From Thermodesulfobacteriota bacterium (lineage in GTDB: Bacteria; Desulfobacterota; RBG-13-43-22): DNA of 64,000 bases. The stretch is taken from the NCBI GenBank assembly GCA_040755035.1, contig JBFMBU010000030.1, positions 41,045-105,044 of the forward strand, given 5' to 3'. Numbering within the stretch: the first letter of the stretch is position 1; each line of letters starts with the position of its first letter. Positions 1 to 60,185 of this stretch are shown here, piece after piece. The translations under genes were made by a program, and so were the position numbers. The notes under the pieces were generated by a model. The model did no database searches and was not told where the DNA came from. It was given only the letters and a program-made list of their open reading frames with translations.

Positions 1-2187
1 GTTATCGCCAAGGAGCACAGCACCCATACCCTCGATACCGCCATCTTTTTCATGGATATGCGAACCTATGGAAAGGATTTTGAAAAATACTACAACCGGG
101 CCGAACAGGAACGGGGGATCCGTTTTGTCCGATCGCGCATCCATTCCATCGACCCCCTCCCTGAAAATGATAATCTTCTGATTCAATACGTAACGGAAAA
201 AGGGGAAGTCCTGCAAGAAGAATTTGATATGGTGGTCCTTTCCGTCGGATTGGAAACCGCACCGGAAGCCATTGCCCTGGCGGAAAAATTGGGCGTACCC
301 CTGGACAAAAATAATTTTGCCCGGGTCAGCAGTTTTTCACCGGTGACCACGGAAACCCCGGGGATTTACGCCTGTGGGGCCTTTGATGGACCCAAGGACA
401 TCCCTCAGGCGGTTATGGAGGCTTCAGCCGTTGCTTGCGCCGCTACCGAATCCCTGGCCGAGGCCAGAGGTCAACTCATCCGTCAGCAGGAGCTCCCTCC
501 GGAAATCGATGTTACCGGCCAGGAAATCCGGGTCGGGGTCTTTGTCTGCAACTGCGGCATCAATATCGGCGGTGTAGCCGATGTACCGGCTGTCCGGGAA
601 TATGCCCGTTCGTTGCCTCATGTCATCCATGTGGAGGACAACCTTTTTACCTGTTCCCAGGATACCCAGGAAAAAATGAAGGCGGTCATTCAGGAAAAAG
701 GGATCAACCGGGTGGTGGTGGCCTCCTGTTCGCCTCGCACCCACGAACCGCTTTTTCAGCAGACCATTCGGGAAGCGGGATTGAATCCCTATTTATTTGA
801 TATGGCCAACATCCGCGATCAGGACACCTGGGTCCACCAGGGAGATCATGAAGCGGCTACGGCCAAGGCCAAAGATCTGGTGCGCATGTCCGTGGCCCGG
901 GTTACCCTGCTTGAACCTTTGCATAAGGTCTCCTTCGGATTGACCAAGTCTGTACTGGTGGTCGGCGGTGGAGTGGCCGGGATGACCGCGGCCTCAAAAC
1001 TGGCCCAGCAGGGTTATCTCATTCATCTGCTGGAAAAAACCGACGCCCTTGGAGGCGTAGCCCTGAAGCTCCGCCATACCTGGAAGGGGGAAGACATCCA
1101 GGCCCATGTCAAAGCATTAGTGGCTGAGGTTACCAACCACCCCGGGATAACCGTCCATTTTAAGACTGAAGTGGTCAAATCTTCCGGCTTCGTCGGAAAT
1201 TTCACCACGATCCTCAACTGTCAAGGACAAACCGAGGAAATCCTGCACGGGGCCGTCATCTTGGCCACCGGCGGTCAGGAGTGGAAACCGGATGTCTATG
1301 CCTACGGCCAGGATCCCCGGATCATGACCGCCCTGGAACTGGACCAAGCTCTGGCCGCCGCTGACGATAGAGTAGCCAAATCCCAAACCGCGGTCTTCAT
1401 TCAGTGTGTCGGCTCCCGTGAGCCGGATCGGCCCTATTGCAGCAAGGTCTGCTGCACCCATAGTGTGGAAAGCGCCTTGAACTTGAAAAAATTAAATCCG
1501 AGCATGGATATTTATATCCTCTACCGGGATATGCGGACCTTCGGCGTTCGGGAGGACCTCTATCGAGAAGCCAGGAACCAGGGGATCTTTTTTATCCGCT
1601 ATGATCCGGAAAACAAACCGGAGGTCCAAACCGAAGGAGGGCATTTAACGGTTACCGTCATCGATCACGTCTTGGGTTTGCCGATAACCCTGACTCCGGA
1701 TTTGCTGACCCTGGCCTCAGCCATAATTCCCAATCCGGTTAAAGAGTTGACCGAGGCCTTCAAGGTCTCCCTGAACAACGAGGGATTCCTGTTGGAAGCC
1801 CATATGAAACTTCGTCCGGTCGATTTTGCCACGGATGGAATCTACCTCTGCGGTCTGGCCCATTATCCCAAACCAATGGACGAAAGCATCGCCCAGGCCC
1901 AGGCCGCTGCCGGAAGGGCTTTAACCCTCCTGGCCAAAGACACGATCAAGGTCGGCGGGGTGGTGGCCGTAGTCCAGGAAGATCTCTGCGCCGTCTGCCT
2001 GACCTGTGTCCGGGTCTGCCCCTTCCGGGTCCCGGTCATCGGCCAGCGGGGAGCGGCCGAGATTGATGTCAGCAAGTGCCAGGGCTGTGGGGTCTGTGTC
2101 TCTGAATGCCCGGCCAAGGCCATCAGTCTCCAACATTTTACGGACAAACAGGTGCTGGCCAAGGTCCAGGCCCTGATTGCGGCCTGA
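1..2187 (+). CDS. hdrA: HdrA-like FAD/FeS heterodisulfide-reductase subunit A family protein (5' end outside window)
   Basis: Open frame from nt 1. C-terminal tandem ferredoxin motifs CAVCLTCVRVCP and CQGCGVCVSECP, GxGxxG-like VVGGGVAGM, and the gene context (mvhD, metV, metF downstream). Confidence 0.8.
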   Translation, partial: VIAKEHSTHTLDTAIFFMDMRTYGKDFEKYYNRAEQERGIRFVRSRIHSIDPLPENDNLLIQYVTEKGEVLQEEFDMVVLSVGLETAPEAIALAEKLGVPLDKNNFARVSSFSPVTTETPGIYACGAFDGPKDIPQAVMEASAVACAATESLAEARGQLIRQQELPPEIDVTGQEIRVGVFVCNCGINIGGVADVPAVREYARSLPHVIHVEDNLFTCSQDTQEKMKAVIQEKGINRVVVASCSPRTHEPLFQQTIREAGLNPYLFDMANIRDQDTWVHQGDHEAATAKAKDLVRMSVARVTLLEPLHKVSFGLTKSVLVVGGGVAGMTAASKLAQQGYLIHLLEKTDALGGVALKLRHTWKGEDIQAHVKALVAEVTNHPGITVHFKTEVVKSSGFVGNFTTILNCQGQTEEILHGAVILATGGQEWKPDVYAYGQDPRIMTALELDQALAAADDRVAKSQTAVFIQCVGSREPDRPYCSKVCCTHSVESALNLKKLNPSMDIYILYRDMRTFGVREDLYREARNQGIFFIRYDPENKPEVQTEGGHLTVTVIDHVLGLPITLTPDLLTLASAIIPNPVKELTEAFKVSLNNEGFLLEAHMKLRPVDFATDGIYLCGLAHYPKPMDESIAQAQAAAGRALTLLAKDTIKVGGVVAVVQEDLCAVCLTCVRVCPFRVPVIGQRGAAEIDVSKCQGCGVCVSECPAKAISLQHFTDKQVLAKVQALIAA

Positions 2188-2275: not shown

Positions 2276-2349
2276 AAAAAATCATTATCCCTGGATTCTA
2301 CGAATAGCCAGAGGAGAAAAAAAATAGGGAGATCAAGGAGTAATAAAAC

Positions 2350-2778
2350 ATGTCCCAAGCTTTTGAACCAAGGATCGTGGCCTTTTGTTGTCAATATTGA
2401 GCCTATAGCGCGGCGGACCTGGCAGGTTCGATGCGACTGCAATATCCGACGAATATAAGGGTCATTATGGTTCCCTGCACCGGCCGTGTGGATGTAATAC
2501 ATCTGTTGGAGGCCATTGAGGAAGGTGCCGATGGCGTCTATGTGGCCGGTTGTTTGGAAGGGGACTGCCATTACATCAGCGGCAATCTGAAGGCTCGGAA
2601 GCGGGTGGAAAGGGTTAAGAAGATCCTCTCCGATCTGGGCCTGGAGGCGGAGCGGGTGGAGATGTACAACCTCTCCGCAGCCCAGGGCCCTCGCTTCGCC
2701 GAGATTGCCAGGGAAATGACGGAAAAGATTAAAAACCTGGGACCAAGCCCGGTGAGGGCTACCGCTAAGGCGGCCTAA
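2350..2778 (+). CDS. mvhD: MvhD-like (methyl-viologen-reducing hydrogenase delta subunit family) protein, putative selenoprotein with in-frame TGA (Sec) at 2398-2400
   Basis: The track ORF 2431..2778 aligns to MvhD from its QYPxNVRxI motif. The same frame upstream carries a good RBS (aaggag) and ATG 2350, and encodes MSQAFEPRIVAFCCQY-TGA-AYSAADLAG. That matches the conserved MvhD N-terminus ...FCCNWCSYGGADxAG with the third Cys codon replaced by TGA. Confidence 0.65.
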
Positions 2779-2818: not shown

Positions 2819-3487
2819 ATGGTAGTGGCTGAACAAAAACCATTGAGTGAAATCCTGGAAATGGTCCAGCCGTATAAAAAAATCCTGGTGGCCGGTTGCA
2901 AGGGCTGTGTGACGGTCTGCAATGCCGGGGGGAAAAAAGAAGTGGAAATACTGGCCGCGGAACTGCGCATCGCTCGAAAAAAAGAAGGGATGGAAGGGGA
3001 TGTCCGGGAAATCACCCTGGAGCGGCAATGCGATCCGGAGTACATGGAACAGTTGGAGGAAGCCATCAGGGACCGGGATGCCGTACTTTCCATCGCCTGC
3101 AGTGTGGGGCCTCAATACATTGCCGGTCGTTTCCTTGATAAAATGGTCTTCCCCGGCCTGAATACCACCTTCATCGGCGGCTCACTGGAACATGGCGTTT
3201 TTGCTGAATTCTGTCAGGCCTGCGGGGCTTGCGGGATTCACAATTTCGGGGGATTATGCCCCATTGCCCGCTGTTCCAAAAGTCTGTTGAATGGTCCCTG
3301 CGGGGGGTCTTCCAGAGGCAAATGCGAGATCAGTAAAGAAGTGGATTGTGTTTGGCAGCTGATTTACGATCGTATGAGCCGTCTGGGGCAAATGGATCGC
3401 TTAACCAGGGTCATCCCCTGTAAGGATTGGACTACCAGCCGTGACGGCGGACCAAGGAAAACCATAAGGGAGGACTTGCGATTATGA
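2819..3487 (+). CDS. MetV-like methylene-THF reductase C-terminal-domain protein (Cys-rich, LNGPCGG motif)
   Basis: CxxC pairs, the LNGPCGGS motif, RBS aaggagg, and an ATGA overlap with metF. Confidence 0.75.
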   Translation: MVVAEQKPLSEILEMVQPYKKILVAGCKGCVTVCNAGGKKEVEILAAELRIARKKEGMEGDVREITLERQCDPEYMEQLEEAIRDRDAVLSIACSVGPQYIAGRFLDKMVFPGLNTTFIGGSLEHGVFAEFCQACGACGIHNFGGLCPIARCSKSLLNGPCGGSSRGKCEISKEVDCVWQLIYDRMSRLGQMDRLTRVIPCKDWTTSRDGGPRKTIREDLRL

Positions 3488-4407
3488 AATCAGGGAGTAA
3501 TTTGGAAAAGGTTCTCAGCGCCGGTCATTTTGCCGTAACCGGCGAATGCGGTCCTCCCAGGGGAGCTAATGCGCATGTGGTCCGGGAAAAAGCGGCCCAT
3601 TTAAAAGGGATTGTTGATTCGGTCAATATGACCGATAACCAGACGGCCGTAGTCCGTATGTCCAGTATGGCCGGTTGTTTGATTCTTCTCCAGGAGGGGC
3701 TGGAGCCGAACCTGCAGATGGTGGTCCGCGACCGGAACCGGATCGGCCTCCAAAGCGATATCCTGGGGGCATATGCCCTGGGAATTCGCAATATGCTTTG
3801 CCTCTCCGGCGACCACCAGAAATTCGGAGACCATCCTTCATCGAAAAATGTCTTTGATCTGGACTCCATGCAGTTGATTCAAACCGTTTACCGGATGCGG
3901 GAAGAGGGCAAGTTCATCAACGGTCAGGAAATCGATACTCCGCCGAAAATGTTCATCGGCGCGGCCGCTAACCCCTTTGCCGATCCGGCCGAATTCCGGG
4001 CCGTACGTCTGGGGAAAAAAGCAGCCTCCGGCGTCGATTTTGTACAAACCCAGTGCATCTTTAATCTGGACCGCTTTGAAAGATTTATGCAGCAGGTCAG
4101 AGACCTGGGGCTGGATGAAAAAGTATATATCCTGGGCGGGGTTACCCCGATGAAATCGGTCGGTATGGCCAATTATATGAAAAACCTGGTGCCGGGCATG
4201 GATGTGCCGGATGAGGTCATCAACCGCATGAAAGGCGTGGCCAAAAAAGATCAGGCCAAAGAAGGGATCGCCATCGCTGTGGAAACCATCCAACGACTGA
4301 AGGAGATGAAGGGGATCGCCGGGGTCCATATCATGGCCATCGAATGGGAGGAAAGGGTGCCGGAAATCACAGAAATGGCCGGGTTGCTTCCCAGACCCAA
4401 GGTATAA
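3484..4407 (+). CDS. metF: 5,10-methylenetetrahydrofolate reductase MetF
   Basis: Length 307 aa, MTHFR-like sequence, translationally coupled to the MetV-like gene. Confidence 0.85.
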   Translation: MKSGSNLEKVLSAGHFAVTGECGPPRGANAHVVREKAAHLKGIVDSVNMTDNQTAVVRMSSMAGCLILLQEGLEPNLQMVVRDRNRIGLQSDILGAYALGIRNMLCLSGDHQKFGDHPSSKNVFDLDSMQLIQTVYRMREEGKFINGQEIDTPPKMFIGAAANPFADPAEFRAVRLGKKAASGVDFVQTQCIFNLDRFERFMQQVRDLGLDEKVYILGGVTPMKSVGMANYMKNLVPGMDVPDEVINRMKGVAKKDQAKEGIAIAVETIQRLKEMKGIAGVHIMAIEWEERVPEITEMAGLLPRPKV

Positions 4408-4510: not shown

Positions 4511-4540
4511 AAAAAAGCCGCCCGTAGGCGGCTTTTTTTT
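4511..4540. terminator. Bidirectional rho-independent terminator between metF (+) and cpoB (-)
   Basis: aaaaaa-GCCGCC-cgta-GGCGGC-tttttttt, a perfect 6-bp GC stem flanked by an A-run and a T-run. Confidence 0.7.
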
Positions 4541-11090: not shown

Positions 11091-13886
11091 TTACACCATT
11101 GCTCCAATGGCCTGATGACAACGGGAACAGAGGGTGGGATGTTCCGGCAAACTTCCCACCTCGGTCCGAAAATTCCAGCACCGTTCGCATTTTTCCCCCA
11201 AGGCCTTTTCCACCCGGATGATCAGACCGGGGATTTCCGAACTGGAAACCCCCTCTAATGAAGCGGGACCTTTATGCAGCTCAACCTGGGAAACAATAAA
11301 CAGGGTCGGCAGAAAATCGATATAGGACCGAACAACCGAGCTCAGGGATTCCGGCAGGTCCAGGATTACCCGGGCATCCAGGGGATTACCGATCAGTTGA
11401 GAGCGGCGGGCCTGTTCCAGGGCCTTGGTGGCCTCGGCCCGCAGGGCCAGGAGGGTCGACCAGCGCTGATCCAGGGCCTCATCCTCTATGACGGTAAGGT
11501 TATCCGGAAATTGGGCCAGATGGACGCTTTCCACTTCTTTGTCCGCCGGGGGGAGAGAGGACCAGACTTCTTCAGCCGTGAAGGATAAAATGGGGGCCAT
11601 CAACCGGACCAGGGCCTTGAGGATAATGAGCAGGGCGGTTTGGGCTGATCTTCGTTCCCGGGACTTGGTGCCCGAAGTATAGAGCCGGTCTTTGAGGATA
11701 TCCAGATAGAAAGCACTCAGTTCATTGGTACAGAACTGGTAGAGGGTGTGGTAAACCACATGAAACTCAAAGCGTTCATAGGCCCGGCGAACCCGGCTGA
11801 TCACCTTTTGCATCTGCAGCAAGGCCCACTGGTCCAATTCTTCCATTTCCTTCAGGGGTACCTGATCCTGGGAAGATTCAAAATCGGAAATATTGCCCAA
11901 CAGGAAACGACAGGTGTTGCGGATGCGTCGATAGGCCTCGGTCAGTTGCTGGAGAATATTCTGGGAAATGCGTATATCATCCCGGTAGTCCTCGGCCGAA
12001 ACCCAAAGCCGTATGATTTCCGCACCATATTTTTTTATGACCTCTTCCGGGTTGATGACATTTCCCAGGGACTTGGACATTTTCTTCCCCTGCCCGTCAA
12101 CAAAGAAACCGTGGGTCAACACCGTCCCATAAGGGGCCTCGCCCCGGGTCCCGACGGCAGCCAGCAGGGAACTGTGAAACCAGCCCCGGTGTTGATCGCT
12201 TCCCTCCAGGTACAAATCGGCGGGCGCCCCGAGATAAGGACGGGCTTCCAGGACCGCCGCATAACTCACACCCGAGTCGAACCAGACATCCAGGATATCG
12301 GTTTCTTTGCGGAAGCGGGTCCCCTGGCAGTGGGGGCAAATGGTACCGGCAGGCACAAGCTGATCTTCCGATGAGGAAAACCAGATATCGGTCCCATGTT
12401 TTAAAACCAGGGATTCCAGATGGTTCAAGCTCTCTTTGGTCATGATCCAATTATTGCAGTTTTGACAGTAAAAGGCCGGGATGGGTACCCCCCAGGAACG
12501 CTGACGGGAAAGGCACCAATCCGGACGGTTTTCCATCATGCCCCGGATACGGTTCATGCCCCAGGCCGGCATCCAGGTCACCCGGTCGATTTCGGCCAAG
12601 GCCTTTTTCCGTAAGGAATTGGCTTCCATGGAAATAAACCATTGTTCTGTGGCCCGGAAGATGACCGGTTTTTTGCAGCGCCAGCAGTGGGGATAACTGT
12701 GCTCCAGAGATTCCTCACCTTTCAGGGCCTTTACCTGGCGCAGATGATCTTTAACCGCCTCATTGGCTTCAAAAACGTGTCGGCCGGCGAAAAATTCCAC
12801 TTCGGGGGTGAAATTTCCCCCGTCATCCACCGGGGAATAGATATCCAGGTGATAGCGGAGCCCGCTATCATAATCCTCCTGACCATGACCTGGTGCCGTA
12901 TGGACGATCCCGGTGCCGTCTTCCAGGGTTACATAAGTGGCTAAGATCATAATCGATTCCCGTTGATAAAGAGGATGACGGCTTTTTTTGCCTTCCAGGA
13001 ATTTGGGATCTATTCCGCAGAGGATTCGCGGGGAAGACCAGGAAAGTCTTTGACTGCATTTTTCCAATAATCCTTTGGCCAGAATAAAGACCTCGTCGCC
13101 CTGCTCGACAGCAACATAGTCATAATCCGGATGGAAGGCCAAGGCCAGGTTGGCCGGAATGGTCCAGGGAGTGGTAGTCCAAATAAGGACCGAAACCTTT
13201 TTGTCCCTCAGGGCAGGATATTCCTTGCTCAGATCGGAGAGGACCGGAAAAGCGACGAAAATAGAGGGAGAGGTATGGGGTTCATATTCCACTTCGGCCT
13301 CGGCCAGGGCCGTCCGGCAGGAACCGCACCAGTAAATGGGTTTTTTACTTTTATAGACGCTTCCCTGCAGAGCAAAGCGTCCGAACTCACGGATAATGAT
13401 CGCCTCATAAGCATTATCCATGGTCAGATAAGGATTGTCCCACTCCCCCAAAACCCCCAGTCGTTTAAACTCGTTACGCTGGATATCAATGAATTTCTCA
13501 GCATAAGCCCGGCAGCGCTGCCTGATTTCGGTCTGGGAAAGGGTCTTCCTCTTAGGCCCTAATTCCTTGTCTACCTGATGTTCTATCGGCAGCCCGTGAC
13601 AATCCCAACCCGGGACATAAGGGGCATCAAACCCGGACATCTGTTTGGATTTGATAATAATATCTTTTAAGGTCTTATTAAGGGCATGGCCGATATGAAT
13701 ATTTCCGTTGGCGTAAGGAGGACCGTCATGAAGGATGAATTTTTTTCGCCCGGCTGAAGCGCTCCGTATTTTTTGATATAATCCAATCTCTTCCCAGTGC
13801 TTCAACCATTCCGGTTCCTTCTGGGCCAGGTTGGCTTTCATGGGGAAGGCGGTTTTAGGCAGATTCAGGGTGTCTTTGTAATCCAT
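11091..13886 (-). CDS. ileS: Isoleucyl-tRNA synthetase
   Basis: HIGH motif ([11 protein letters not shown]), KMSKS motif, C-terminal Zn-finger CxxC; start taken at [12 protein letters not shown]. Confidence 0.9.
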
Positions 13887-14019
13887 AGGACCTCCGATAG
13901 AATGTTTCCTCTCTTCACTTATCATAACATAGAGATATGTCAAGGAGAAAGCGGGATTTTCTTTCCCATTTCTACTCCAGGACTTGCTTTTTGAGGGCTA
14001 ATCGTATAGTAAGAAAACC

Positions 14020-14772
14020 ATGGATCCCATACAAGGCATTGGTTTTGATTTATTCAACACCCTGATTACCGCCGACCCCGCAGCTTTAGGTGAAGCCATG
14101 CACCGCATGATCGGCAGTCTCCGGGCAAGCGGGATAGGCTTAGAAATGGAACCCTTTCAAAAGGCCTACCGCGAAGCGGCCATGAGGTTTGTGGCGGAAA
14201 GTAAGGCGGAAGGCAAAGAGACCCACAACCGTTTTTGGATAAGCGCTGCCTTGAGGACCTTAGGCCGGGACCTGGGACCTGAAGACACAGCGGTTGCCAA
14301 AGCGGTGGAGGCCTATTTTTCCACTTTTTTGGATTATTGCCGTCTGATCCCTCAAACCCTGGAAATGCTTGCCCTGCTGAAGGGGAAGTTTCGCCTCGGG
14401 CTTTTGTCTAATTTCACCCATGCCCCGGCAGTAGAAGGACTTCTGAACAAATTTGGCCTGACCCCTTTTTTTGACACGGTCCTGGTGTCCGGGGCCTTGG
14501 GCTTTAGAAAACCCCACCCCCTGGTTTTCGAAAAGTTGGTCCAGGACTTGAGTTTAGAAAGGAAGCATATACTCTATGTCGGCGATAGCCTGGACCCTGA
14601 TGTCACCGGAGCGGTCCAGGCCGGATTGCGGCCGGTATGGATGACCTATGTACAGGACCATCACCTGCCGGTTTTTCCTCCTTACAGCGTCCCTTCAGAG
14701 CAAACCTTTTCCCGGGAATTGCTCAGGGTCTCCAATTGGGAAGAATTCCTTAACCTGCTGGGGCTGGCCTGA
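14020..14772 (+). CDS. HAD-superfamily hydrolase
   Basis: N-terminal FDLFNTL motif and C-terminal YVGDSLDPD motif. Confidence 0.7.
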   Translation: MDPIQGIGFDLFNTLITADPAALGEAMHRMIGSLRASGIGLEMEPFQKAYREAAMRFVAESKAEGKETHNRFWISAALRTLGRDLGPEDTAVAKAVEAYFSTFLDYCRLIPQTLEMLALLKGKFRLGLLSNFTHAPAVEGLLNKFGLTPFFDTVLVSGALGFRKPHPLVFEKLVQDLSLERKHILYVGDSLDPDVTGAVQAGLRPVWMTYVQDHHLPVFPPYSVPSEQTFSRELLRVSNWEEFLNLLGLA

Positions 14773-14828
14773 TTTTTTCCCTAAGGGGGGCAGCATAATA
14801 ATTGTTTCAAAAGATGGGCTCACAAAAA

Positions 14829-14968
14829 GTCGAATGCTGTCATTTCGAAAAGGGAACCGACGAGAAATCTTTTCGGTCGATTTCATCGACCTTAACAGGA
14901 GATCGGCAAGTCGGTCGGGCCGTTCGACTTGGTCGAACTAAGAAACCGACCGGTCGAAATGACAAAAA
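14829..14968 (+). promoter_or_regulatory. GTCGA-rich nested-palindrome element in the leader of the radical-SAM operon; terminal 11-bp inverted repeat TGTCATTTCGA...TCGAAATGACA
   Basis: Seen directly: tgtcatttcga (about 14838-48) and tcgaaatgaca (about 14954-64), plus internal IRs ggtcgat/atcgacc and gttcgac/gtcgaac. Confidence 0.4.
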
Positions 14969-15020
14969 AGGATTTTCCGACTTTCTACGAAACCATCTTT
15001 AGAAGGGTTAATCGTAGACG

Positions 15021-15911
15021 ATGGTTGAGATCGAAGATGAAATGGAATATGAGGGGATGGTCATCCGGCCTCCCAGCGAGGCCTATAGCATCCTGCTCCA
15101 GGTTACGGTGGGCTGCTCCCATAACAAGTGTTCCTTTTGCGCCACGTATAAGGACAAACGCTTCCGTATAAAAACGAATGAAAGAATTTTAAAGGACATC
15201 CTTTTTGCCTCCCAATATTGCCGGAGGCAGGACAAGGTCTTTCTGATGGATGGGGATGCCCTGATCATCCCCCAAAAACGGCTGGTCTGGATTTTGGAAA
15301 GGATTAGAGAACACCTTCCCTGGGTGAAAAGGGTGGGACTTTACGCCAATGCCAAAAGCATTGGTATGAAAAGCGATGAAGATTTAAAAACCCTCAAGTC
15401 CCTCGGCTTGGGGATTGCTTACCTGGGAGTGGAAACCGGCCATCCCGAACTGCTTAAAAAAATCAACAAGGGAACCTCCAGAGAAAACCTGATCCTTCAG
15501 GGTAAACGGTTAAAAAAAGCGGGGATCAAACTATCGGTTACTGTTTTATTGGGAATCGGCGGCCAGGAACTAACGCGGGAACACGCCTTGGCCACGGGAT
15601 CTTTGCTCAGCGAAATGGATCCGGATTTCGTCGGGGCCCTGACGGTCATGGTTCTGCCCAACACCCCCCTGGGCAAACAACTGACCGAAGGCCAATTCAA
15701 GCCCCTGACCGTTCCCGAGATCCTGACCGAACTGGGGGAAATGGTGGCCGCCACCCGGCTTACCCGGGGATATTTTTATTCCAACCACGCCTCCAACTAC
15801 CTGCCCTTGAAAATAAAATATCCCGAAGGCCAAGAGGCGGCCTTACATCTGATCGAAAAAGCCATACAGGGCGGGGTGGGCCTGCGTCCGGAATGGCAGC
15901 GGGGATTATGA
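15021..15911 (+). CDS. Radical SAM protein with non-canonical Cx4Cx2C cluster motif (CSHNKCSFC)
   Basis: GCSHNKCSFCA motif, glycine-rich SAM-binding region. Alternative start at Met13 (about 15057) has the better RBS (gagggg). Confidence 0.8.
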   Translation: MVEIEDEMEYEGMVIRPPSEAYSILLQVTVGCSHNKCSFCATYKDKRFRIKTNERILKDILFASQYCRRQDKVFLMDGDALIIPQKRLVWILERIREHLPWVKRVGLYANAKSIGMKSDEDLKTLKSLGLGIAYLGVETGHPELLKKINKGTSRENLILQGKRLKKAGIKLSVTVLLGIGGQELTREHALATGSLLSEMDPDFVGALTVMVLPNTPLGKQLTEGQFKPLTVPEILTELGEMVAATRLTRGYFYSNHASNYLPLKIKYPEGQEAALHLIEKAIQGGVGLRPEWQRGL

Positions 15912-36803: not shown

Positions 36804-37035
36804 GGTCTGCCGACTCCTTCCATAATTTTTACTCAGGCAGGGATTATAAGGTAATATAGCAAAAAAAACCTTTAATGGCAAGAAGTAAGAGCCTTGATAT
36901 TACATAAATTGATATTATATAAATTGACATAATTTGTATTTTTTGATAGGAAAACCAAGGTGAATAGATCATAATGAAAAGTCTTAAGACCGAGCCACCG
37001 GCGACCTTAACCCCTGCAACGGAAAGGGAACCACC

Positions 37036-39138
37036 ATGGAAGAAATAAGAAAAGTAAGGACCGTCTGCCGCAGCTGCCACGGCGGGTGCGGGGTAATGGC
37101 CACGGTTAAAAACAACCGGGTGGTCAAAATTGAAGGAGATCCGGATTCCCCCATCAGCTTCGGGACCTTATGCAGCAAGGGCATGGGCATCACTCAGATC
37201 GCCTACCATCCGGACCGCATCCTCCACCCTCTGAAAAAAACCCCCCGGGGTTGGGAGCGGATCACCTGGGATGAGGCCCTGGATACGATAGCGGCAAGTT
37301 TTAAAAAGGTTATCCGGGAATACGGGCCGGAATCCCTTTTCATCGGCCAGGGGACGGGCCGGGATTACGAAAGTCATTTTTCCCGCTTCGGCAATCTCCT
37401 GGGAACCCCCAATGTGTTGACCGCCGGACATATGTGTTATTTGTCCCGCATCGGGGCTTCTTTGATAACCTGCGGCCGTTTTCCGGTCTGCGATTATGAA
37501 GGGGAGCCGAAATGCATCGTCCTCTGGGCCGTCAATCCCTTATGGACCAATCCGGATGAATACAAGGGAGCCGGTTTCTGGCGGGCTTATAAGAAAGGGG
37601 CCAAATTGATCGTCATCGACCCCCGTAAAAATTTTTATACCCGGAAGGCCGACCTCTGGCTCAAACTCCGACCCGGTACCGACGCGGCTTTGGCCATGGG
37701 ATTTCACCAGGTCATCATCGAAGAAGAGCTTTACGACAAAGCGTTCGTAACCCATTACATTCACGGATGGGAAGCCTTCGTGGACAGGGTCAGGGACTAT
37801 CCCCTTTATAAAGTAGAACAGATCACCGGTGTGGATGAAGAGCTGATCCGGGAAGCGGCCAGGGTCTATGCCCGCACCAAACCCGCTGCCATTCATTGGG
37901 GGGTGCCGACCGAGCAGACCATCAACTGCACGGATTTCACCCGGGCGGCTATCGGACTCATGGCCTCCAGCGGTAATCTGGACGCCCCCGGAGGAAATGT
38001 CTTTCACGTTCCCCCCAAGGTCCGTAAGGTATCGGAATTTTCCCGCCATGACGCCCTCTCTCCACAGCAAAGGGCAAAAAGACTGGGGGGCGAGCAATAC
38101 AAATTGGCGGCCCGAATGGCCCTGATCACCCCCAAACCGGCCTGGGAAGCCATGCTGACCGGCAAACCTTATCCCCTTAAAGCCGGCATCTTTGTCGGCA
38201 CCAATCCGGTGATTACCGAGGCCAATGCCAAAACCATCTATGCCGCCCTGCAGAAACTTGATTTTTTGGCCGTCTCTGATTTCTTCCTCACCCCAACGGC
38301 TGAATTGGCTCATATCTTCCTGCCGGCCGGTACCTGGCTGGAGCAGAACCATATGGCCGAAAACTGGAAGTTTCACGGTTATGTCCTGGCCAGGCAAAAA
38401 GTAGTAGAGATCGGTGAATGCTGGCAGGATCATAAAATATTTCAAGAACTGGGCAAACGGATGGGGCAGGAATGGTGGGGCTCGGTGGAAGAGGCTTTGG
38501 ATTATCTTTTGGAACCTACGGGTTTGAACTGGGAACAATTCAAGGAAAAGGGCTGGCTCAAAGGAGAGATGGAATATTACAAATATCGTAAAGGAGGATT
38601 TTCCACCCCCACCCGCAAGGTGGAACTCTATTCCACCACTCTGGAAGACTGGGGCCATGACCCTTTACCTAAATTCACGGAGATTCCGGAAAGTCCTGTC
38701 TCCCGCCCCGACCTGGCCAAAGAGTATCCTTATATCCTCAATGCCGGATTAAGAACCCCGGTCTTTTTCCATTCCGCCAACCGTCAGGTCCCCTGGCTGC
38801 GGGAGATCCGCCCCGACCCGACGGTGGAGCTCCATCCGGATACGGCCAAAAACCATGGGATCAAAGAGGCCGATTGGATCTGGATTGAATCCCCCCGGGG
38901 TCGCGTCAAACAGAAAGTCAAACTCAATGAGGGTATCGATCCGGGCCTGGTGGTGGCCGAACACGGCTGGTGGTTCCCGGAAATCAAAGACCCCGGCCAT
39001 GGCTGGGATGTATCCAATATCAATGTCCTGACCGATGATTCTCATGAGTCCATGGATCCGGTCATGGGCGCGACCAACCTTCGGGTCTTATTATGTAACA
39101 TCGCCCCTTGCGACCAGGATCAGGAGGCCGGATTATGA
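37036..39138 (+). CDS. Molybdopterin (bis-MGD) oxidoreductase catalytic subunit, cytoplasmic (no Tat signal)
   Basis: N-terminal CRSCHGGCGV 4Fe-4S motif, MopB-type domains, 700 aa. Confidence 0.85.
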   Translation: MEEIRKVRTVCRSCHGGCGVMATVKNNRVVKIEGDPDSPISFGTLCSKGMGITQIAYHPDRILHPLKKTPRGWERITWDEALDTIAASFKKVIREYGPESLFIGQGTGRDYESHFSRFGNLLGTPNVLTAGHMCYLSRIGASLITCGRFPVCDYEGEPKCIVLWAVNPLWTNPDEYKGAGFWRAYKKGAKLIVIDPRKNFYTRKADLWLKLRPGTDAALAMGFHQVIIEEELYDKAFVTHYIHGWEAFVDRVRDYPLYKVEQITGVDEELIREAARVYARTKPAAIHWGVPTEQTINCTDFTRAAIGLMASSGNLDAPGGNVFHVPPKVRKVSEFSRHDALSPQQRAKRLGGEQYKLAARMALITPKPAWEAMLTGKPYPLKAGIFVGTNPVITEANAKTIYAALQKLDFLAVSDFFLTPTAELAHIFLPAGTWLEQNHMAENWKFHGYVLARQKVVEIGECWQDHKIFQELGKRMGQEWWGSVEEALDYLLEPTGLNWEQFKEKGWLKGEMEYYKYRKGGFSTPTRKVELYSTTLEDWGHDPLPKFTEIPESPVSRPDLAKEYPYILNAGLRTPVFFHSANRQVPWLREIRPDPTVELHPDTAKNHGIKEADWIWIESPRGRVKQKVKLNEGIDPGLVVAEHGWWFPEIKDPGHGWDVSNINVLTDDSHESMDPVMGATNLRVLLCNIAPCDQDQEAGL

Positions 39139-54023: not shown

Positions 54024-54416
54024 TTAATAAGAAACCGGCAGGATGTCTGTTTGTGAAAAATCTTCTCCTTTGAACAGGAGAGGTTCCCCGGCATATTTCG
54101 CCAGAGCATAGGCACAGCAATCCCCAATATTCAGACCGGCCGGATGATTCCCTTTTCCGTAATGGCGCCAGGCCACTCGGGCTATTTCGGACTGATCGGG
54201 ATTCATGGATACGATTTCCATCTGGGTTCGGTGGAGCAGCAGATCAAGTTCCCGCCCCCCGGGTTCACCCTTTTTAGCTTCGATGACGATAGCCGTTTCC
54301 AGCCAATTAATAACACTGATTATACGACGTGGATCATTCGCGATGGCCTGGGCAAAGCGCCCGGCTTCCATTTCATCCAGCAGAAGGGCAATAAGTGCTG
54401 AAGAGTCTATGACCAT
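54024..54416 (-). CDS. vapC: PIN-domain toxin VapC
   Basis: PIN acidic residues; 130 aa; overlaps the vapB stop. Confidence 0.85.
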   Translation of the reverse strand: MVIDSSALIALLLDEMEAGRFAQAIANDPRRIISVINWLETAIVIEAKKGEPGGRELDLLLHRTQMEIVSMNPDQSEIARVAWRHYGKGNHPAGLNIGDCCAYALAKYAGEPLLFKGEDFSQTDILPVSY

Positions 54417-54670
54417 TATTCCGGAACCCCTTCCTGATTATAATTCAGAATTTGCTCCGCATTCCTGGAATCTTTGTCAGGGATACGACCGCACCGGTGG
54501 GCTATCTTCAACATTTCTCCTGCAAGGTCCACAGGTTCTTTTTTCCCCTGAATTCGTAGCAGGCGGTCTTCTAAGGCATTAATAATGGCCTGGGTAATAG
54601 TCTGCCCACTTTTTGCAGCCAATTCCCTGGCTAATTTTTCAGCCCTGGGGTTATGTATACTTAAGGGCAT
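54416..54670 (-). CDS. vapB: VapB/FitA-like antitoxin
   Basis: Length 84 aa; FitA-like N-terminus; coupled to vapC. Confidence 0.75.
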   Translation of the reverse strand: MPLSIHNPRAEKLARELAAKSGQTITQAIINALEDRLLRIQGKKEPVDLAGEMLKIAHRCGRIPDKDSRNAEQILNYNQEGVPE

Positions 54671-54822
54671 ATTATTCTCCTATTAGTATATTTTATTTAT
54701 TTTTTTATATATTATATAATTAAACCTGTCAAGAGAATTAGAGAAATGAAAACAAGCTCAGAAGAAGAGGTTTTCTCCAGAAAATAGAAAAGGAAAATAT
54801 GTAAAGGTTAAGAGGTGTTAAT

Positions 54823-54899
54823 GATCGCCCATATGGAGCCATTGCAAGATCGTTTAATGGCGCCACCTCGTGATCGCCTATTGGAGCCACTTAAAGTCG
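54823..54899 (+). repeat. Two imperfect about-30-bp direct repeats (gatcgcccatatggagccattgcaagatcg / gatcgcctattggagccacttaaagtcg)
   Basis: Seen directly, between the vapBC promoter region and higBA. Confidence 0.4.
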
Positions 54900-55172
54900 C
54901 CAAAGGGTCTCGTATAAGGGGACATTCGTTCTGAAAGTGCTTTGCAAAAAAAGACAGTCAATCAAAAGAAAAGAGTCGATGATCTTGGAGGAATTGCGGT
55001 CGTTAGTTGATGGTCTGGATTGAAATGGTTTTCCGATAACTGTGGCGAAGGGGCCACACCCGTTTCCATTCGGAACGGGTTGATTAAACCCTTCCAAGGC
55101 ACCCTTAATATTAACTCCCGCCTCTATCGATTCTCACTTGACAATAATATCCTTTTGAGATATTACTTCATC

Positions 55173-55454
55173 ATGATCAAGAAGTTCAAATGCAAGGAAA
55201 CCGAGAAGCTATTTAACGGGCGGTTTTCTTCAAAATTACCGCAAACGATTCAACGATCAGCGGCCATCAAATTGAAAATGATTAATGCCGCAACTCGGCT
55301 GGAAACCTTGCGTATTCCTCCGTCTAATAATCTGGAAGTATTGCAAAGAGAAAGAGAGGGGCAATATAGTATCCGGATCAATAAACAATGGCGTATTTGT
55401 TTTGTTTGGAAAAACGGTGATGCTTTTGATGTAGAAATTGTTGATTACCATTGA
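55173..55454 (+). CDS. higB: HigB toxin (RelE/ParE superfamily)
   Basis: MIKKFKCKETEKLF...NGDAFDVEIVDYH, a classic HigB. Confidence 0.9.
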   Translation: MIKKFKCKETEKLFNGRFSSKLPQTIQRSAAIKLKMINAATRLETLRIPPSNNLEVLQREREGQYSIRINKQWRICFVWKNGDAFDVEIVDYH

Positions 55455-55771
55455 AAGGTGACATCATGAAAAAACGTGATTTTCCCCCCATCCATCCCGG
55501 CGAAATCCTTTTGCAGGAATTCTTGATACCCTTGGGAATCAGCCAGTATCGCCTGGCCAAAGATATTGGCGTAACACCTCGTCGAATTAACGAAATCGTA
55601 AACGGCCGGCGGGCCATTAGCGCCGACACAGCCATCCGACTGGGGCGCTTTTTCAATATGGAGGTTAATTTCTGGCTAAATCTTCAATCCCATTATGATA
55701 TGGAAATGGCTTTTGATGTTCTTCAAGACAGGTTAGAAACCGAAGTTCGCCCCTTTTCTCGTGCGGCTTGA
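55451..55771 (+). CDS. higA: HigA antitoxin (XRE-family HTH)
   Basis: HPGEIL...RLAKDIGV...VNGRRAIS HTH; 4-nt overlap with higB. Confidence 0.9.
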   Translation: MKGDIMKKRDFPPIHPGEILLQEFLIPLGISQYRLAKDIGVTPRRINEIVNGRRAISADTAIRLGRFFNMEVNFWLNLQSHYDMEMAFDVLQDRLETEVRPFSRAA

Positions 55772-56129
55772 CATCCATGATAAGTAAAGTCAAGGGGAAA
55801 ATGGAGGTTTCCCCTGACCATCCGGAATACCTATCTCCCGGCGGTTTATCTACATCAATCTGCCGACACTTGATCTTTTTATTCGGACTTTTGGGTCGCC
55901 GTTTATTGATCAGGCGACCAGACATCCATTTGCTGTAATGAGGTCTGATAAGGCTTCTTTTACACCCTATCGTCAATGACCTCTAAAGGAGATTGAGTTT
56001 AGGTCAACCCGCCGGCCTCGAAACACAATACCGTTGCATGGCCCTTTTGACCTGCATAGTCCCCAGGACGGCAAGGTCCGGCGGGAAGATCTTTCTTTTG
56101 GCAAATCTATTTAACGCTGCTTTGGAATT

Positions 56130-57590
56130 CTAAGTGGGTACCCCTTTATCCGGTTGTAATTTTTTAAATTCACTAGCGGCTGCGATAATGGGCTTCTAAC
56201 CGGCTCGTCGGAGGAGCCGCCTACCACTATTGGGAGGACCCGGGGGAAACCCGGAAACGCCTATCTAAGGTTCCTTCCTCAGGCGGCCTGCCTTTCTCCC
56301 AGAAGTTGGAGACCGGTTTGTTGTTTGTCCACGGCTAGCATATAGGCCACCAGCTTCCTGGCTACAGCCAAGGTGGCCCTGTTTGGGGTCCCTTTTTGTA
56401 ACTCCCGTTCATGCAAGATAGCCAGTGGGCGGTTCCAGCGCGGCGCAAGTTTTGCAGCCTCAATGAGTATGGTTTGCAAATGTTTGTTCCGTTTTTTGGA
56501 AATCGGTCCCCGCTGTTCTTTGGCGGCCGATTCCCGTTGAGCACTGCAAAGGCCACAATAGCTGACTGCTTGGCGGATGGAACCAAATCGTCCTGGCTCA
56601 CCGACCTCCAGTACCCAGGTCAAAGCCGTCAGTTCACCAATCCCCCGAATGCCCATAAGACCTTCCATCCGATCCCTTATCAAATCGTTATGGCGCAAGG
56701 CTTCCACCAGCCTTTTCTGGCAGGAAGAAAATATCTCATAGTTGGACCGGCTCAGCTTCAGAGGCTCCTTGACCGATGGAGGGATTTCTTCCACCCGTTC
56801 CAGAAACTCACGGAAATATTTTTTACCGTGAATCCGTTTCTTGCTGTAGGTTACTCCAACTTCCATCAGTAGCCCGGTCATCTTGTTCTGCATCTTGACG
56901 GCCGTCCGAACTATATGGTTTCGATATCGTAAGATCCGTCGCAGTTCCCTTATCTCTTCCGGTAGCATATGACATTCCGGAAGAAGATCAACCCGCAGCA
57001 AATCGACTATGCGCTCGGCATCGGCCCGGTCGTTCTTTTTCTTGGCCGCTGTTATGGCTCTTAACATCTCAGGATGAGCTACTTTGAGATCAACTGCATG
57101 TGGCTTCAGAAAATCGTAAACCCAGCCAGTGAATATCGTCGCTTCCATCGCCCCAACCCAAGGCCCCGGCAACCCTTTTCCCCATTCCAACAAAGATGAC
57201 CTGCTGGCTTCAATCCTCCCCTGGTTATATAACCTTCCAGTATTTGTTTTAATACAATAAGCGATTATCCTCTTGTGAATATCCAGCCCAATATAGTAAA
57301 CTCTTTTCATGGAAACCTCTTTCTGGTTTGGTTCTGAGCGAGAACGCTCGTCTCCGCTGCTTGTCTCTTTAAGCATTTTCCACCACCTGGAGGTTTCCTG
57401 CAACTCCTTTTACTTATGCATTCAAACACAATAAGTAATTTCAAAACAATTGAGTAATGGTTTTAAGGAATTGAGCGAATAGGAGAAAAAAGGCGCAACA
57501 GATGAGAGAAAGCGGTCAGAAGCCACATAACCAAATCACTCAACCGGACGGCGGGTTGAGCCCGCCGCCGGTTAGCTCGCCGTTCGGAAT
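56130..57590 (-). mobile_element. IS110-family insertion sequence (boundaries approximate)
   Basis: IS110-type transposase gene with about 280-nt upstream and about 150-nt downstream non-coding flanks, and a GC hairpin at about 57544-57571. No terminal IRs, as is typical for IS110. Confidence 0.45.
56279..57310 (-). CDS. IS110-family transposase
   Basis: N-terminal MKRVYYIGLDIHK (DEDD_Tnp_IS110) and C-terminal Transposase_20-like HTH; RBS aagagg. Confidence 0.85.
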   Translation of the reverse strand: MKRVYYIGLDIHKRIIAYCIKTNTGRLYNQGRIEASRSSLLEWGKGLPGPWVGAMEATIFTGWVYDFLKPHAVDLKVAHPEMLRAITAAKKKNDRADAERIVDLLRVDLLPECHMLPEEIRELRRILRYRNHIVRTAVKMQNKMTGLLMEVGVTYSKKRIHGKKYFREFLERVEEIPPSVKEPLKLSRSNYEIFSSCQKRLVEALRHNDLIRDRMEGLMGIRGIGELTALTWVLEVGEPGRFGSIRQAVSYCGLCSAQRESAAKEQRGPISKKRNKHLQTILIEAAKLAPRWNRPLAILHERELQKGTPNRATLAVARKLVAYMLAVDKQQTGLQLLGERQAA

Positions 57591-57596
57591 TGAAAA

Positions 57597-57803
57597 ATGA
57601 GATTCGATATCTATGGAAAATTTCAACTCCAGGTTGAACGGGAGGATGGAAAGTGGCGAGCATATAAAATTGGAAATGGTTTGCGCATTCCCCTCCATAA
57701 TTTAATAATTCCTTCAGAGGTGTCCCCTGAGGATTTACCCGCCTTCTTAGATGATGTTTTTCACGAGGCGGCAACTCCAGAGAAGAAGGTATTTGAAATA
57801 TGA
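57597..57803 (+). CDS. Small conserved hypothetical protein (68 aa)
   Basis: ORF only; the sequence looks like a recurring small protein family, identity unknown. Confidence 0.4.
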   Translation: MRFDIYGKFQLQVEREDGKWRAYKIGNGLRIPLHNLIIPSEVSPEDLPAFLDDVFHEAATPEKKVFEI

Positions 57804-57942
57804 GCCTCGCTAAAGTGAGCTTGATGGCTGCCTACCCTGTCATTTCCGGAATCCAGGGCGAAGCCCCATGTCCAGACCGGCCCTTCAAAGCACCCTGGCC
57901 TTTGCTGAATTCTTGTTAAAAAATATGGGGAGGTAAAAATCC

Positions 57943-58530
57943 ATGAAAACCCCATTATTGACAACTAAACGATTGATTTTGAAACCGATCGCTCTGTCGG
58001 ATGCACCAGCGATTCAAAAGTATTTTAACAATTGGAATATTATTAAAAATCTGACTACTGACGTTCCCTGGCCCTATCCTGATGATGGCGCTGAATATTT
58101 TTTGAAAAATATTGCCTTGCCCAAAGTGGCGGAAGGAGCTTCATTACTGTGGGGCATTCATATTAAAAATGGCCCGGACGAACCGGTTGGAATTATTGAA
58201 TATCGGTTTAATAACGATTTGGGTCGAGGGAATCGAGGCTTCTGGCTTGCCGAACCTTTTTGGGGAAAGGGATATATGACCGAAGCGGTTACAGCCGTAC
58301 AAGACCACCTATTTTTTGAACTGGGCATCAATCGTATCATTGTTTTAAATGCGAAAAGTAATAGCGGCTCACGTCGCGTAAAAGAAAAAACGGGTGCGAA
58401 ATTTATTAGTCATTGTAAACTTGAGCATAGAAGTGGTGAGACAGAATCCGAGAAATGGGAAATCACCTTTGAATCCTGGGCAATTATTCGAGGGAAATCT
58501 TTAACGGAAAGGGGGGCGTCCCCTATATAG
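57943..58530 (+). CDS. GNAT N-acetyltransferase (RimJ/RimL-like)
   Basis: MKTPLLTTKRLILKPI...; GNAT motif A GKGYMTEAV. Confidence 0.85.
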   Translation: MKTPLLTTKRLILKPIALSDAPAIQKYFNNWNIIKNLTTDVPWPYPDDGAEYFLKNIALPKVAEGASLLWGIHIKNGPDEPVGIIEYRFNNDLGRGNRGFWLAEPFWGKGYMTEAVTAVQDHLFFELGINRIIVLNAKSNSGSRRVKEKTGAKFISHCKLEHRSGETESEKWEITFESWAIIRGKSLTERGASPI

Positions 58531-58805
58531 TGACTATTGAATCTCCCTCTGTGAATCTAAGTTTTGGGCCGCGACTGCTTGTTGATTCGTTTGGATTAAG
58601 GTCTCAGAAAAAGATGTTTGGGGTCTATACCGCCCCCATTTGGATGATATTTTCGGCCTGGTAGTCCGGCCCAAAAAATTCCAGATCCCGGAGGAAATCA
58701 ATCTGGCCAAAGTAAACCGTTGGAAGGCCTGCTGGCCCAAGCTTCGTAATATACCTTGGTAAGCGGATTTTCAATTAAAGACAACCAACATTTTAAAAAA
58801 TTTTC

Positions 58806-59143
58806 ATGCCGGCCGGGAGAGATATGACTTTTCAGGAAATGCAGAAAGGGGTTTTAGCGGTCGCCGACACCTATGGAAAGCGGTTCGGCATTACAATTGA
58901 CCAGAACTTTGCTTTACTCAAGCTCTACGAAGAAGTGGGGGAATATGCCCAGGCGGTTTTGATTCAATTAAAAAAAGCACAACTGAAAAAATAAGATCGG
59001 ACGAAGAAACCAGGGTACTGCTGGTTGAAGAACTGGCTGATATTATCGGACTGGTCCGTGTGAATGCTAAGCTTTTCGGGATAGACTTGGAAAAGGCTAT
59101 TAAGGAAAAATGGCTCGATCGGGCTTACGCAAACTTGGATTAA
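58806..59143 (+). pseudogene. MazG-like nucleotide pyrophosphohydrolase interrupted by a -1 frameshift in an A6 run (about 58986-58991)
   Basis: The N-terminal part ends ...LKKAQLKK-stop. The 3' part continues in the -1 frame as IRSDEETRVLLVEELADIIGL...; one extra A restores a single ORF with the EExxE...EELxD motifs. Confidence 0.6.
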
Positions 59144-59177
59144 AGAGGGTAACTGAATGCGGTCAAGAGGTTATGGA

Positions 59178-59468
59178 TCAAAATGAAATCCATCGCCCTT
59201 TGTTTAATTGAATTTTTTGTTGTGATCCGGAATTTAAAAAAATCTGCTCATTCGAGTATGTTCCCCGCTTTAACCAAAAACTCTTTTTCAATTCCATCAA
59301 TGACCAGTCACGCTTTTCGTCAAAAGGGATGCTGTTTCGCAACTCCCGGGTATATAACCATACCGGCCCGCTCCTCTCTTTTTCCGGATCGGCAAGAAGT
59401 AAGGCATAACCGGGATAAAACTGGTAATCCCCCAGCACCACCCATCCAGATTTAATCCGGCAAATCAC
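59178..59468 (-). CDS. Hypothetical protein (96 aa)
   Basis: ORF only. Confidence 0.3.
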   Translation of the reverse strand: MICRIKSGWVVLGDYQFYPGYALLLADPEKERSGPVWLYTRELRNSIPFDEKRDWSLMELKKSFWLKRGTYSNEQIFLNSGSQQKIQLNKGRWISF

Positions 59469-59569
59469 CTAAGGATTCTTTCCGGCCCGGGCCAGTTCAA
59501 CCCTTTTTTCCACCAATGTTTTCATATTTCCCTTGCGTATAAAAAAATATTGAAGGGCAGGGGCTGTTA

Positions 59570-60019
59570 TCACGGAAGATGTAAGATATCTTCGAGATCT
59601 TTGTGTCTCCCGGCAGCCTGTTTATTCTTTTTAAGATCCGGAAGGGAAATCAGATTGACTTGAATTCCTTCGATCTCTGCCACCTCTCTATTGGAAAAAC
59701 ATTCCTTGAAATCAACTCCGGAAGCATCGGTAATCACTTCCAGTCGAACCGGCGGTACCCCCATCCGGATTACCTTTTTCATTTCCAAAAAAAGGTCTTC
59801 GTAAACAATATCTCTCGGCACCCCAAAGGCCTGAAAGGCGGAAGTTATCTTCTTGGCATTTGTTTCGCTGCGTTCTATCCAAATGTCCATATCACCGGTC
59901 GATCTCGGGTACCCGTGATATCCAACGGCATACCCGCCGACCAGAAGATATTTGACCTCAAAAAAGGTCAGCAGTCTCAAGAAATCTTTGAAGTCTGGAT
60001 GTAGCTCTATCCTGGCCAT
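59570..60019 (-). CDS. Minimal nucleotidyltransferase-fold protein
   Basis: GGYAVGYHGYPRSTGDMDIWI (GS...DxD NTase motif); C-terminal GRHKDLEDI. Confidence 0.55.
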   Translation of the reverse strand: MARIELHPDFKDFLRLLTFFEVKYLLVGGYAVGYHGYPRSTGDMDIWIERSETNAKKITSAFQAFGVPRDIVYEDLFLEMKKVIRMGVPPVRLEVITDASGVDFKECFSNREVAEIEGIQVNLISLPDLKKNKQAAGRHKDLEDILHLP

Positions 60020-60185
60020 AGATCATCCTTCTATTGATTTCGACAGCTTCAATCCTTTCCAGAGGACTCTTGGTGCCCCAATAACGCTTTTCTTCGGCAA
60101 TTTCGTCTAGAGAAGCGATTTGGATTATTTCTTTTTTCAGACTTGGAAGTTTGTCCATTTCTCCACCTCCTTTAAGATATACCAC
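59958..60185 (-). CDS. Small hypothetical protein upstream of, and overlapping, the nucleotidyltransferase gene
   Basis: ORF only; 62-nt overlap with the downstream gene. Confidence 0.25.
   Translation of the reverse strand: MVYLKGGGEMDKLPSLKKEIIQIASLDEIAEEKRYWGTKSPLERIEAVEINRRMIYGQDRATSRLQRFLETADLF

Follow-up and report, generated by a model that had tools for sequence, protein, structure and literature searches.

Selenocysteine in the FrhD/MvhD/VhuD family

PF02662 (FrhD/MvhD/VhuD) is catalogued as a prokaryotic selenoprotein family with the motif CxxU, in which U stands for selenocysteine (Sec) (2026 review, PMC13188914). Here we examine an mvhD-type gene of this family, located at positions 2350-2778 of a 64,000-nucleotide stretch (the window) of contig JBFMBU010000030.1 from a Thermodesulfobacteriota bacterium. 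The gene very probably encodes a 142-residue MvhD-type [2Fe-2S] electron-transfer protein whose UGA codon 17 is translated as Sec, and its C14-Q-Y-U17 is the CxxU motif of the catalogued family. The kind of finding is already known, as Sec-containing MvhD/FrhD proteins have been documented in Deltaproteobacteria since 2006. In that year, the survey of Zhang, Romero, Salinas and Gladyshev listed 19 Sec-FrhD genes from bacteria, which made FrhD the third-largest family; eight of the copies were in Syntrophobacter fumaroxidans alone (PMC1794560). Conversions were reported in both directions between Sec and cysteine (Cys), with 3+3 events (PMC1794560). The FrhD family resembles the group of orthologs around the window gene in its repeated Sec/Cys interchange. 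However, the operon highlighted in 2006, glpC-hdrA-frhD-frhG-frhA, is hydrogenase-linked, whereas the window locus is without hydrogenase genes and is tied to metV-metF.

Desulfobacterium autotrophicum HRM2 carries Sec-containing mvhD1, mvhD2, mvhD3 and mvhD5 beside hdrA/hdrL, together with the full sel machinery (PMC2702500). Its genome paper also defined the HdrL type, a fusion of HdrA with an NAD(P)H module that resembles glutamate synthase (PMC2702500). Like the window gene, these genes belong to PF02662, come from the same phylum and have a small mvhD immediately following a gene of the HdrA or HdrL type, and the HdrL of D. autotrophicum matches the 1479-residue partner type found in L001, one of the relatives surveyed below. 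The difference is that several of the partner hdrA/hdrL genes in D. autotrophicum are themselves selenoprotein genes, while hdrL of the window group has no in-frame TGA and forms an uninterrupted open reading frame (ORF) of about 1480 residues in eight relatives.

BamF of the class II benzoyl-CoA reductase from Geobacter metallireducens, studied by cryo-electron microscopy, contains Sec19, which is stated to be the same residue as Cys16 of MvhD (bioRxiv 10.64898/2026.04.10.717634). Via the alignment of MvhD chains described below, Sec19 would correspond to window position 17. Like the window protein, BamF is a bacterial homolog of MvhD and works as an adaptor for a bifurcating flavoprotein of the HdrA type, but it is more than 100 residues longer, contains two Rossmann domains and a winged helix, and serves aromatic-ring reduction instead of one-carbon metabolism. 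Archaeal VhuD (PDB 9sfi/9t1s; Methanococcales) holds two Sec residues, the first of which (X14) aligns exactly with window codon 17. It differs from the window protein in its second Sec, located at window C68, and in its archaeal selenocysteine insertion sequence (SECIS), which lies in the 3' untranslated region and is not an in-frame hairpin. Meanwhile, the known mvhD-metV-metF clusters share with the window both this adjacency and an upstream HdrA-type flavoprotein, but the window has no adjacent hdrB or hdrC, its HdrA module is fused (HdrL), and fhs lies upstream in L001. Structural work on BamF and VhuD is already addressing the role of the Sec residue.

A full-length reading frame across an in-frame TGA

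A mechanical ORF list places the start of the gene at ATG 2431 and gives a product of 115 residues. Read from ATG 2350, the same frame runs MSQAFEPRIVAFCCQY-TGA(2398-2400)-AYSAADLAGSMRL... and ends at TAA 2776-2778, with AYSAADLAGSMRLQYP as the stretch right after the TGA in the same frame, on to the TAA. This is the single in-frame TGA within 2350-2778. ATG 2350 is preceded, 8-13 nt upstream, by a Shine-Dalgarno-like AAGGAG, as read directly from the sequence (Table 1), while ATG 2431 lacks such a motif and follows immediately on the 3' arm of the hairpin described below.

With Cys in place of the stop, the 142-residue product matched PF02662 (FlpD) over profile positions 1-123 of 123 with an E value of 1e-52, scoring 177.8 bits against a cut-off of 22.3. 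Because the match spans the full length of the profile, the 16 codons 5' of the TGA are part of the domain. Homologs of about 141 residues cover 99% of this product, and the MvhD chains in the PDB align with it without gaps from residue 2-8 on. The NCBIfam VhuD model NF045873 gave 162.6 bits, under its 215-bit cut-off; by these scores the window protein is a bacterial MvhD-type relative, not an archaeal VhuD. Binding of a [2Fe-2S] cluster is predicted from its homology to 5odc_D, 7bkb_F and 9sw2_D. The proper annotation is a 142-residue selenoprotein, not a 115-residue fragment without a conserved cysteine, and the same short mis-call affects dozens of database clusters.

Codon state of the orthologs at the TGA site

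Searching with the full-length product returned thousands of matches, and the best 120 of them were about 141 residues long with 96-100% query coverage. The column of the TGA was occupied by Cys in 118 of these best 120, with the motif FCCKYCAYAAADLAGS. When the 115-residue ORF alone was used as the query, every cluster at 77-96% identity was 114-119 residues long. As the nearest relatives all have this length, gene callers must have cut them at the same Met.

The homologous codon was read directly from DNA in 80 species-representative Desulfobacterota genomes (loci L001-L080), which are labelled 'delta proteobacterium', Desulfobacula, Desulfarculaceae, Syntrophobacterales, Desulfocarbo indianensis and others. 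It was TGA in 62, TGC in 10 and TGT in 8 of them, and neither TAA nor TAG was found at the site in any of the 81 sequences (80 genomes plus the window). Of the 62 Sec loci, 59 had the gene order hdrL-mvhD-metV-metF, as did 16 of the 18 Cys loci, and in most of the remainder a contig end interrupts the cluster. Since the Sec and Cys forms share this context, they are orthologs.

Upstream of the TGA, among the preceding 12 codons, those for F, E, P, I, A, F, C, C and Y were fixed at first and second positions (zero entropy), while their third positions showed an entropy of 0.8-1.9 bits. As judged from the codon positions, selection at the protein level demonstrably acts on the coding sequence both before and after the TGA. 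Met28, encoded by ATG 2431, is invariant also in the Cys-type full-length proteins and is thus an internal residue, not a start.

These data bear on the possibility that the TGA is a genuine stop, either in a pseudogene or through an assembly error, or upstream of an N-terminally shortened 115-residue MvhD that starts at ATG 2431. Gene callers do give precisely this product here and in dozens of relatives, and Sec machinery is not seen within the window. However, the TGA is kept in 62 species-level genomes with upstream codons under purifying selection, the other two stop codons never take its place, the Met in question is internal in full-length Cys-type proteins, and the ATG stands right after a hairpin with no ribosome-binding motif. 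Moreover, the short product would lack C14, which is conserved in every solved MvhD structure. Because of the exclusive use of TGA, its conservation in 62 species and the purifying selection on both sides, a pseudogene, an error or a reinitiated short product can be set aside, and we regard a genuine stop as very unlikely.

A SECIS hairpin conserved in the TGA genes

In the bacterial SECIS (bSECIS) model, the apical loop is 3-9 nucleotides (nt) long and the upper stem 4-16 bp, G occurs in the first two loop positions with the typical pattern N1-G-[G|U]-N-N2, the distance from UGA to loop is 16-37 nt, and the minimum free energy is at most -7.5 kcal/mol (PMC13188914, Fig. 2 legend). The hairpin at 2414-2430 agrees with this model on all four counts. 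Its GGC loop starts 20 nt after the UGA on a stem of 6-7 bp, and U-GGC-A fits the loop pattern exactly. RNAfold gave a z score of -2.46 for 2405-2445.

The 15-nt core GGACCTGGCAGGTTC (2415-2429) was found exactly, at a fixed offset, in 62 of 62 TGA loci and in the window, but in 0 of 18 Cys loci. It does not differ by a single nucleotide between lineages labelled Desulfobacterales, Syntrophobacterales, Desulfarculaceae and Desulfatiglandales. The Cys orthologs encode the same A-D-L-A-G-S peptide in the same operon and can hence serve as a natural control; over D-L-A-G-S their synonymous codons vary freely. In 60 distinct TGA-gene sequences the third positions +17, +20, +23, +26 and +29 had zero entropy, compared with 1.88, 0.96, 1.42, 1.75 and 1.97 bits in the 18 Cys genes, and the flanking third positions of the TGA genes were free (1.7-1.9 bits). 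The RNAalifold consensus of the 60 sequences consisted of six invariant pairs and the GGC loop. By this comparison of synonymous sites, the RNA-level constraint on the hairpin demonstrably exceeds what the encoded peptide needs, and does so in the TGA genes only. The exact 15-mer, located 17 nt after the T of the TGA, offers a practical marker that flags the metVF-linked ortholog group.

Among 57 distinct sequences, the closing pair of the core was CG in 18 and GC in 15, and the remaining 24 had no pair there. No further copy of the core was present within the window with up to 2 mismatches. A conserved lower or outer helix was considered and rejected: the longest such helix averaged 4.83 bp against 4.64 bp in shuffled controls (60 sequences) and was the same in the Cys genes, as expected by chance. 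ACTCGG/CCGAGT in some clades and TGCAG/CTGCA in Desulfobacula, taken as register-shifted lower stems, were a likeness by eye and were likewise dropped as chance.

Selenocysteine weighed against other readings

If the UGA is read through at all, it might still be decoded as Cys or Trp, by near-cognate pairing, through a reassigned code or, under selenium scarcity, by means of Cys-tRNA(Sec); the mature protein would then often be selenium-free. The Sec machinery is able to place Cys at UGA via thiophosphate under selenium limitation. Two database homologs also show a standard amino acid other than Cys at the Sec/Cys column, namely W in P0114 (FCCQHWAYS) and R in P0048 (FCCKYRAYA). However, TGA is the terminator of 21 of 45 Pfam-supported ORFs in the window, and this ordinary termination indicates that the genetic code is not reassigned. 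In addition, an invariant hairpin specific to the TGA genes is predicted by SelB-dependent decoding, not by simple read-through. The W of P0114 is probably a TGA put through the wrong table and not a real Trp, because it stands in the Sec-type context QH-W-AYS, as does the codon of L009, which reads QH-TGA-AYS. Decoding as a standard amino acid is hence given very little weight. Conservation of the 15-mer for a reason unrelated to Sec, such as a protein- or small-RNA-binding site or codon-usage bias with an incidental hairpin, would agree with the invariant DLAGS peptide and the core's lack of internal covariation, but it is the least credible reading of all, since Cys orthologs with the identical peptide and operon are free at all five synonymous sites, the 15-mer follows the TGA in 62 of 62 loci against 0 of 18 Cys loci, and the geometry fits the bSECIS model throughout.

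Translation of codon 17 as Sec is supported by the Sec/Cys ortholog pair, the exclusive use of TGA, the coding conservation on both sides, the SECIS hairpin and an RNA-level constraint confined to the TGA genes. Several points weigh on the other side. Compensatory covariation is absent from the hairpin core, in which a switch (CG or GC) is seen at the closing pair only; as the core is invariant, no covariation could be counted there. Rfam gave no match for the whole window at the gathering threshold or for 2300-2560 at E values up to 10, a result that is expected and uninformative because covariance models cover bacterial SECIS elements poorly. The genes selA, selB, selD and selC (tRNA-Sec) were not found within the 64-kb window by the ORF screen and ARAGORN. 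Lastly, the assignment of U17 as a non-ligand is based on published text and sequence alignment.

A first-pass annotation of the window had already called the gene a probable selenoprotein, and the evidence listed above bears this out. Its reading of the listed ORF as starting inside the MvhD fold, with the frame extending to ATG 2350 behind a good ribosome-binding site, agrees with the sequence, and the homologs with Cys in that column uphold its view that the TGA replaces the third cysteine in the CCxxC motif of MvhD. The comparison of ortholog codons that it proposed came out as a mixture of TGA and TGC/TGT. It had also allowed that orthologs might start at the downstream Met or that a SECIS-like structure might be lacking; the full-length Cys orthologs hold Met28 internally, and positions 2406-2439 hold a hairpin in line with the bSECIS model (core 2414-2430), where inspection by eye had found none convincing.

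Probable position of the selenocysteine beside the cluster

As for the residue that is replaced, window position 17 aligned without gaps with Cys16 of 9sw2_D (M. marburgensis MvhD); its counterpart is Cys17 in 7bkb_F and a non-standard residue, X14, in 9sfi_K. The register of the 9sw2_D alignment is confirmed by His68 and Asp71, which fall where the paper numbers them. Cys16 of MvhD is described as a conserved additional cysteine (PMC13580544), and recent structural papers portray the residue as an extra cysteine that sits next to the [2Fe-2S] cluster without being one of its ligands. The earlier designation of codon 17 as a conserved cluster cysteine should thus be revised. Five Cys positions (window 14, 17, 43, 68 and 73) recur in every solved MvhD chain, and the window protein holds all of them, with U at 17. 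Position 13 is not universal, being Ile in 7bkb_F and Val in 9sfi_K. On this basis, C14, C43, C68 and C73 are the likely [2Fe-2S] ligands, and U17 would be an adjacent redox-active residue.

The second non-standard residue of 9sfi_K (residue 65, presumably Sec) aligned with window C68 (2551-2553). Because C68 is an inferred ligand, archaeal VhuD may have a Se-ligated cluster, while the bacterial window protein keeps Cys at this position. The paper on the 8-MDa M. maripaludis complex discusses Sec197 of HdrA, and the Sec residues of VhuD are not described there.

By analogy with the established bacterial mechanism, SelB·GTP·Sec-tRNA(Sec) would bind the GGC-loop hairpin during the ribosome pause at UGA, and the bound complex would thereby outcompete RF2 at this codon. 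The alignment to solved MvhD structures and published descriptions suggest a role for U17 beside the cluster: as a selenol or selenenylsulfide, it may form a relay from the cluster, which handles one electron, to the flavin of the HdrA-type partner, which handles two.

Interchange of selenocysteine and cysteine

In a rough neighbor-joining tree, Sec was placed at the root with about two Sec-to-Cys switches. The ancestral state appears to be Sec, which about three quarters of the species retain. At codon 15 (2392-2394), two residues before the Sec/Cys position, the Sec genes (60) have Q (49) or M (9), and 17 of the 18 Cys genes have K. Exceptions were L041, a Cys gene with Q on a separate tree branch, and L057, a Sec gene with K. 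This pattern may reflect thiol activation by Lys in the Cys forms or a codon-context effect on UGA decoding. If the former, the Q/M-to-K change that comes with the Sec-to-Cys switch could supply a positive charge for activation of the thiol.

It is conceivable, though we hold this with reserve and consider it rather doubtful, that the metVF-linked MvhD group amounts to an unusually clean natural experiment on Sec at a non-ligand site beside a [2Fe-2S] cluster. If true, it would give comparative support for a selenol/thiol relay from the cluster to a bifurcating flavin, a point left open by the 2026 structural papers, and would extend the relay idea to a bacterial methylene-tetrahydrofolate (THF) reductase. 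The value of the result lies in a corrected gene model and the selenium use that it implies, with no conceptual novelty. The invariant SECIS core, the correlation of Q/M versus K with the codon state, and the prevalence of Sec at a non-ligand cysteine whose part in cluster-to-flavin transfer is under debate may be of mild specialist interest.

Operon context

The coordinates of the genes and RNA elements are collected in Table 1.

Table 1. Features of the mvhD locus and of a distal gene cluster, in window coordinates.
Feature	Position	Strand	Remarks
hdrL-type gene, 3' half (728 codons)	1..2187	+	GltD/NfnB-like NAD(P)H module fused to HdrA-like; runs off left window end
Shine-Dalgarno-like AAGGAG	2334..2339	+	upstream of ATG 2350; read directly from sequence
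mvhD-type gene, complete, predicted Sec at codon 17	2350..2778	+	142 codons + stop; replaces 115-residue call from 2431
In-frame TGA, predicted Sec codon U17 of the C14-x-x-U17 motif	2398..2400	+	homologous codons, PDB chain alignment
Extended hairpin	2406..2439	+	core + lower stem 2406-2412 / 2432-2439; RNAfold dG -15.4 kcal/mol
Predicted SECIS core	2414..2430	+	stem C-G, G-C, G·U, A-U, C-G, C-G, U-A; loop GGC 2421-2423
metV (DUF5981, methylenetetrahydrofolate reductase C-terminal-like)	2819..3487	+	PF12225, E 2.3e-35
metF (methylenetetrahydrofolate reductase)	3484..4407	+	PF02219, E 1.4e-37
PIN-domain gene	54024-54437		
HigB-like toxin + helix-turn-helix antitoxin	55011-55771		
IS110-family transposase	56279-57409		
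IS200-like Y1 transposase domain	60644-61645		

The HdrA2/HdrA-like ORF ends 163 nt upstream of mvhD, and an HdrA-type gene adjoins mvhD in at least 75 of 80 loci. The complete hdrL ortholog of L001 encodes 1479 residues, with Fer4_20 and Pyr_redox_2 followed by an HdrA-like flavin adenine dinucleotide domain and Fer4, and is itself preceded by fhs (formate-THF ligase). Its product is the presumed redox partner of MvhD. The locus, fhs–hdrL–mvhD–metV–metF, is that of the Wood-Ljungdahl methyl branch, and judging from gene context MvhD would connect the NAD(P)H-binding HdrL fusion to MetV-MetF. The Sec call thus implies that the organism decodes Sec and requires selenium for this branch. Neither hdrB nor hdrC was found next to the cluster, as seen upstream of hdrL in L001, where fhs stands, and among the window genes 3' of metF. 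The latter are encoded on the opposite strand and comprise TPR/YfiO-like, OmpA-family and TolB genes.

Two further structures were observed in the non-coding DNA of this region. A palindrome at 4511-4538, AAAAAAGCCGCC...GGCGGCTTTTTT, has a 12-bp stem with A/T runs on both sides and lies between the converging metF and TPR/YfiO-like genes; it resembles an intrinsic terminator acting in both directions, which would end the operon. The hdrL-mvhD spacer contains at 2192-2276 a long imperfect inverted repeat built of tandem units of about 7 nt (GTTCAGC/GTTCGGC ... GCCGAAC/GACGAAC), whose 25-nt arms are 84% complementary; the folding energy of the spacer is about -35 kcal/mol (z -3.8). Spacers of L001-L010 showed the same repeat-built hairpin architecture in quite different sequence (z -2.2 to -7.8), and the hairpin is mostly missing in more distant clades. 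It could be an intercistronic processing, stability or attenuation element that sets the ratio of hdrL to mvhD-metVF.

Selenocysteine machinery in the group

In the window, all 55 ORFs of at least 100 residues were screened against Pfam or NCBIfam, and tRNA genes were searched with ARAGORN. The single ORF of the AIRS fold, an AIRS/AIRS_C ORF at 63055, was tried as selD and rejected, as it is purM (TIGR00878, 256.6 bits versus 236.35). Directly 3' of metF in L063, a tRNA-Sec gene (12430-12521) is followed by selB (12549-14462; TIGR00475, 279.9 bits versus a cut-off of 242.25) and a gene for a YedE-family selenium transporter (14769-15899). The mvhD of L063 is itself of the Cys type (TGT). When SelB and YedE of this locus were searched against all loci and the window, only L063 was recovered, plus a partial hit in L056, a Cys-type locus with a partial selB-like match at the contig end. 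The selC-selB-yedE cluster of L063 thus establishes that Sec machinery exists in the group, which does not settle the matter for the genome of the window.

Other genes in the window

A molybdopterin oxidoreductase gene at 36988-39138 resembles formate dehydrogenase alpha and PhsA and scored below every NCBIfam cut-off. It was considered as a second selenoprotein gene and rejected, being an uninterrupted 716-residue ORF with no in-frame TGA. Farther downstream, 54024-61645 holds a cluster of mobile-element and toxin-antitoxin genes (Table 1), with several short ORFs between them that have no Pfam match.

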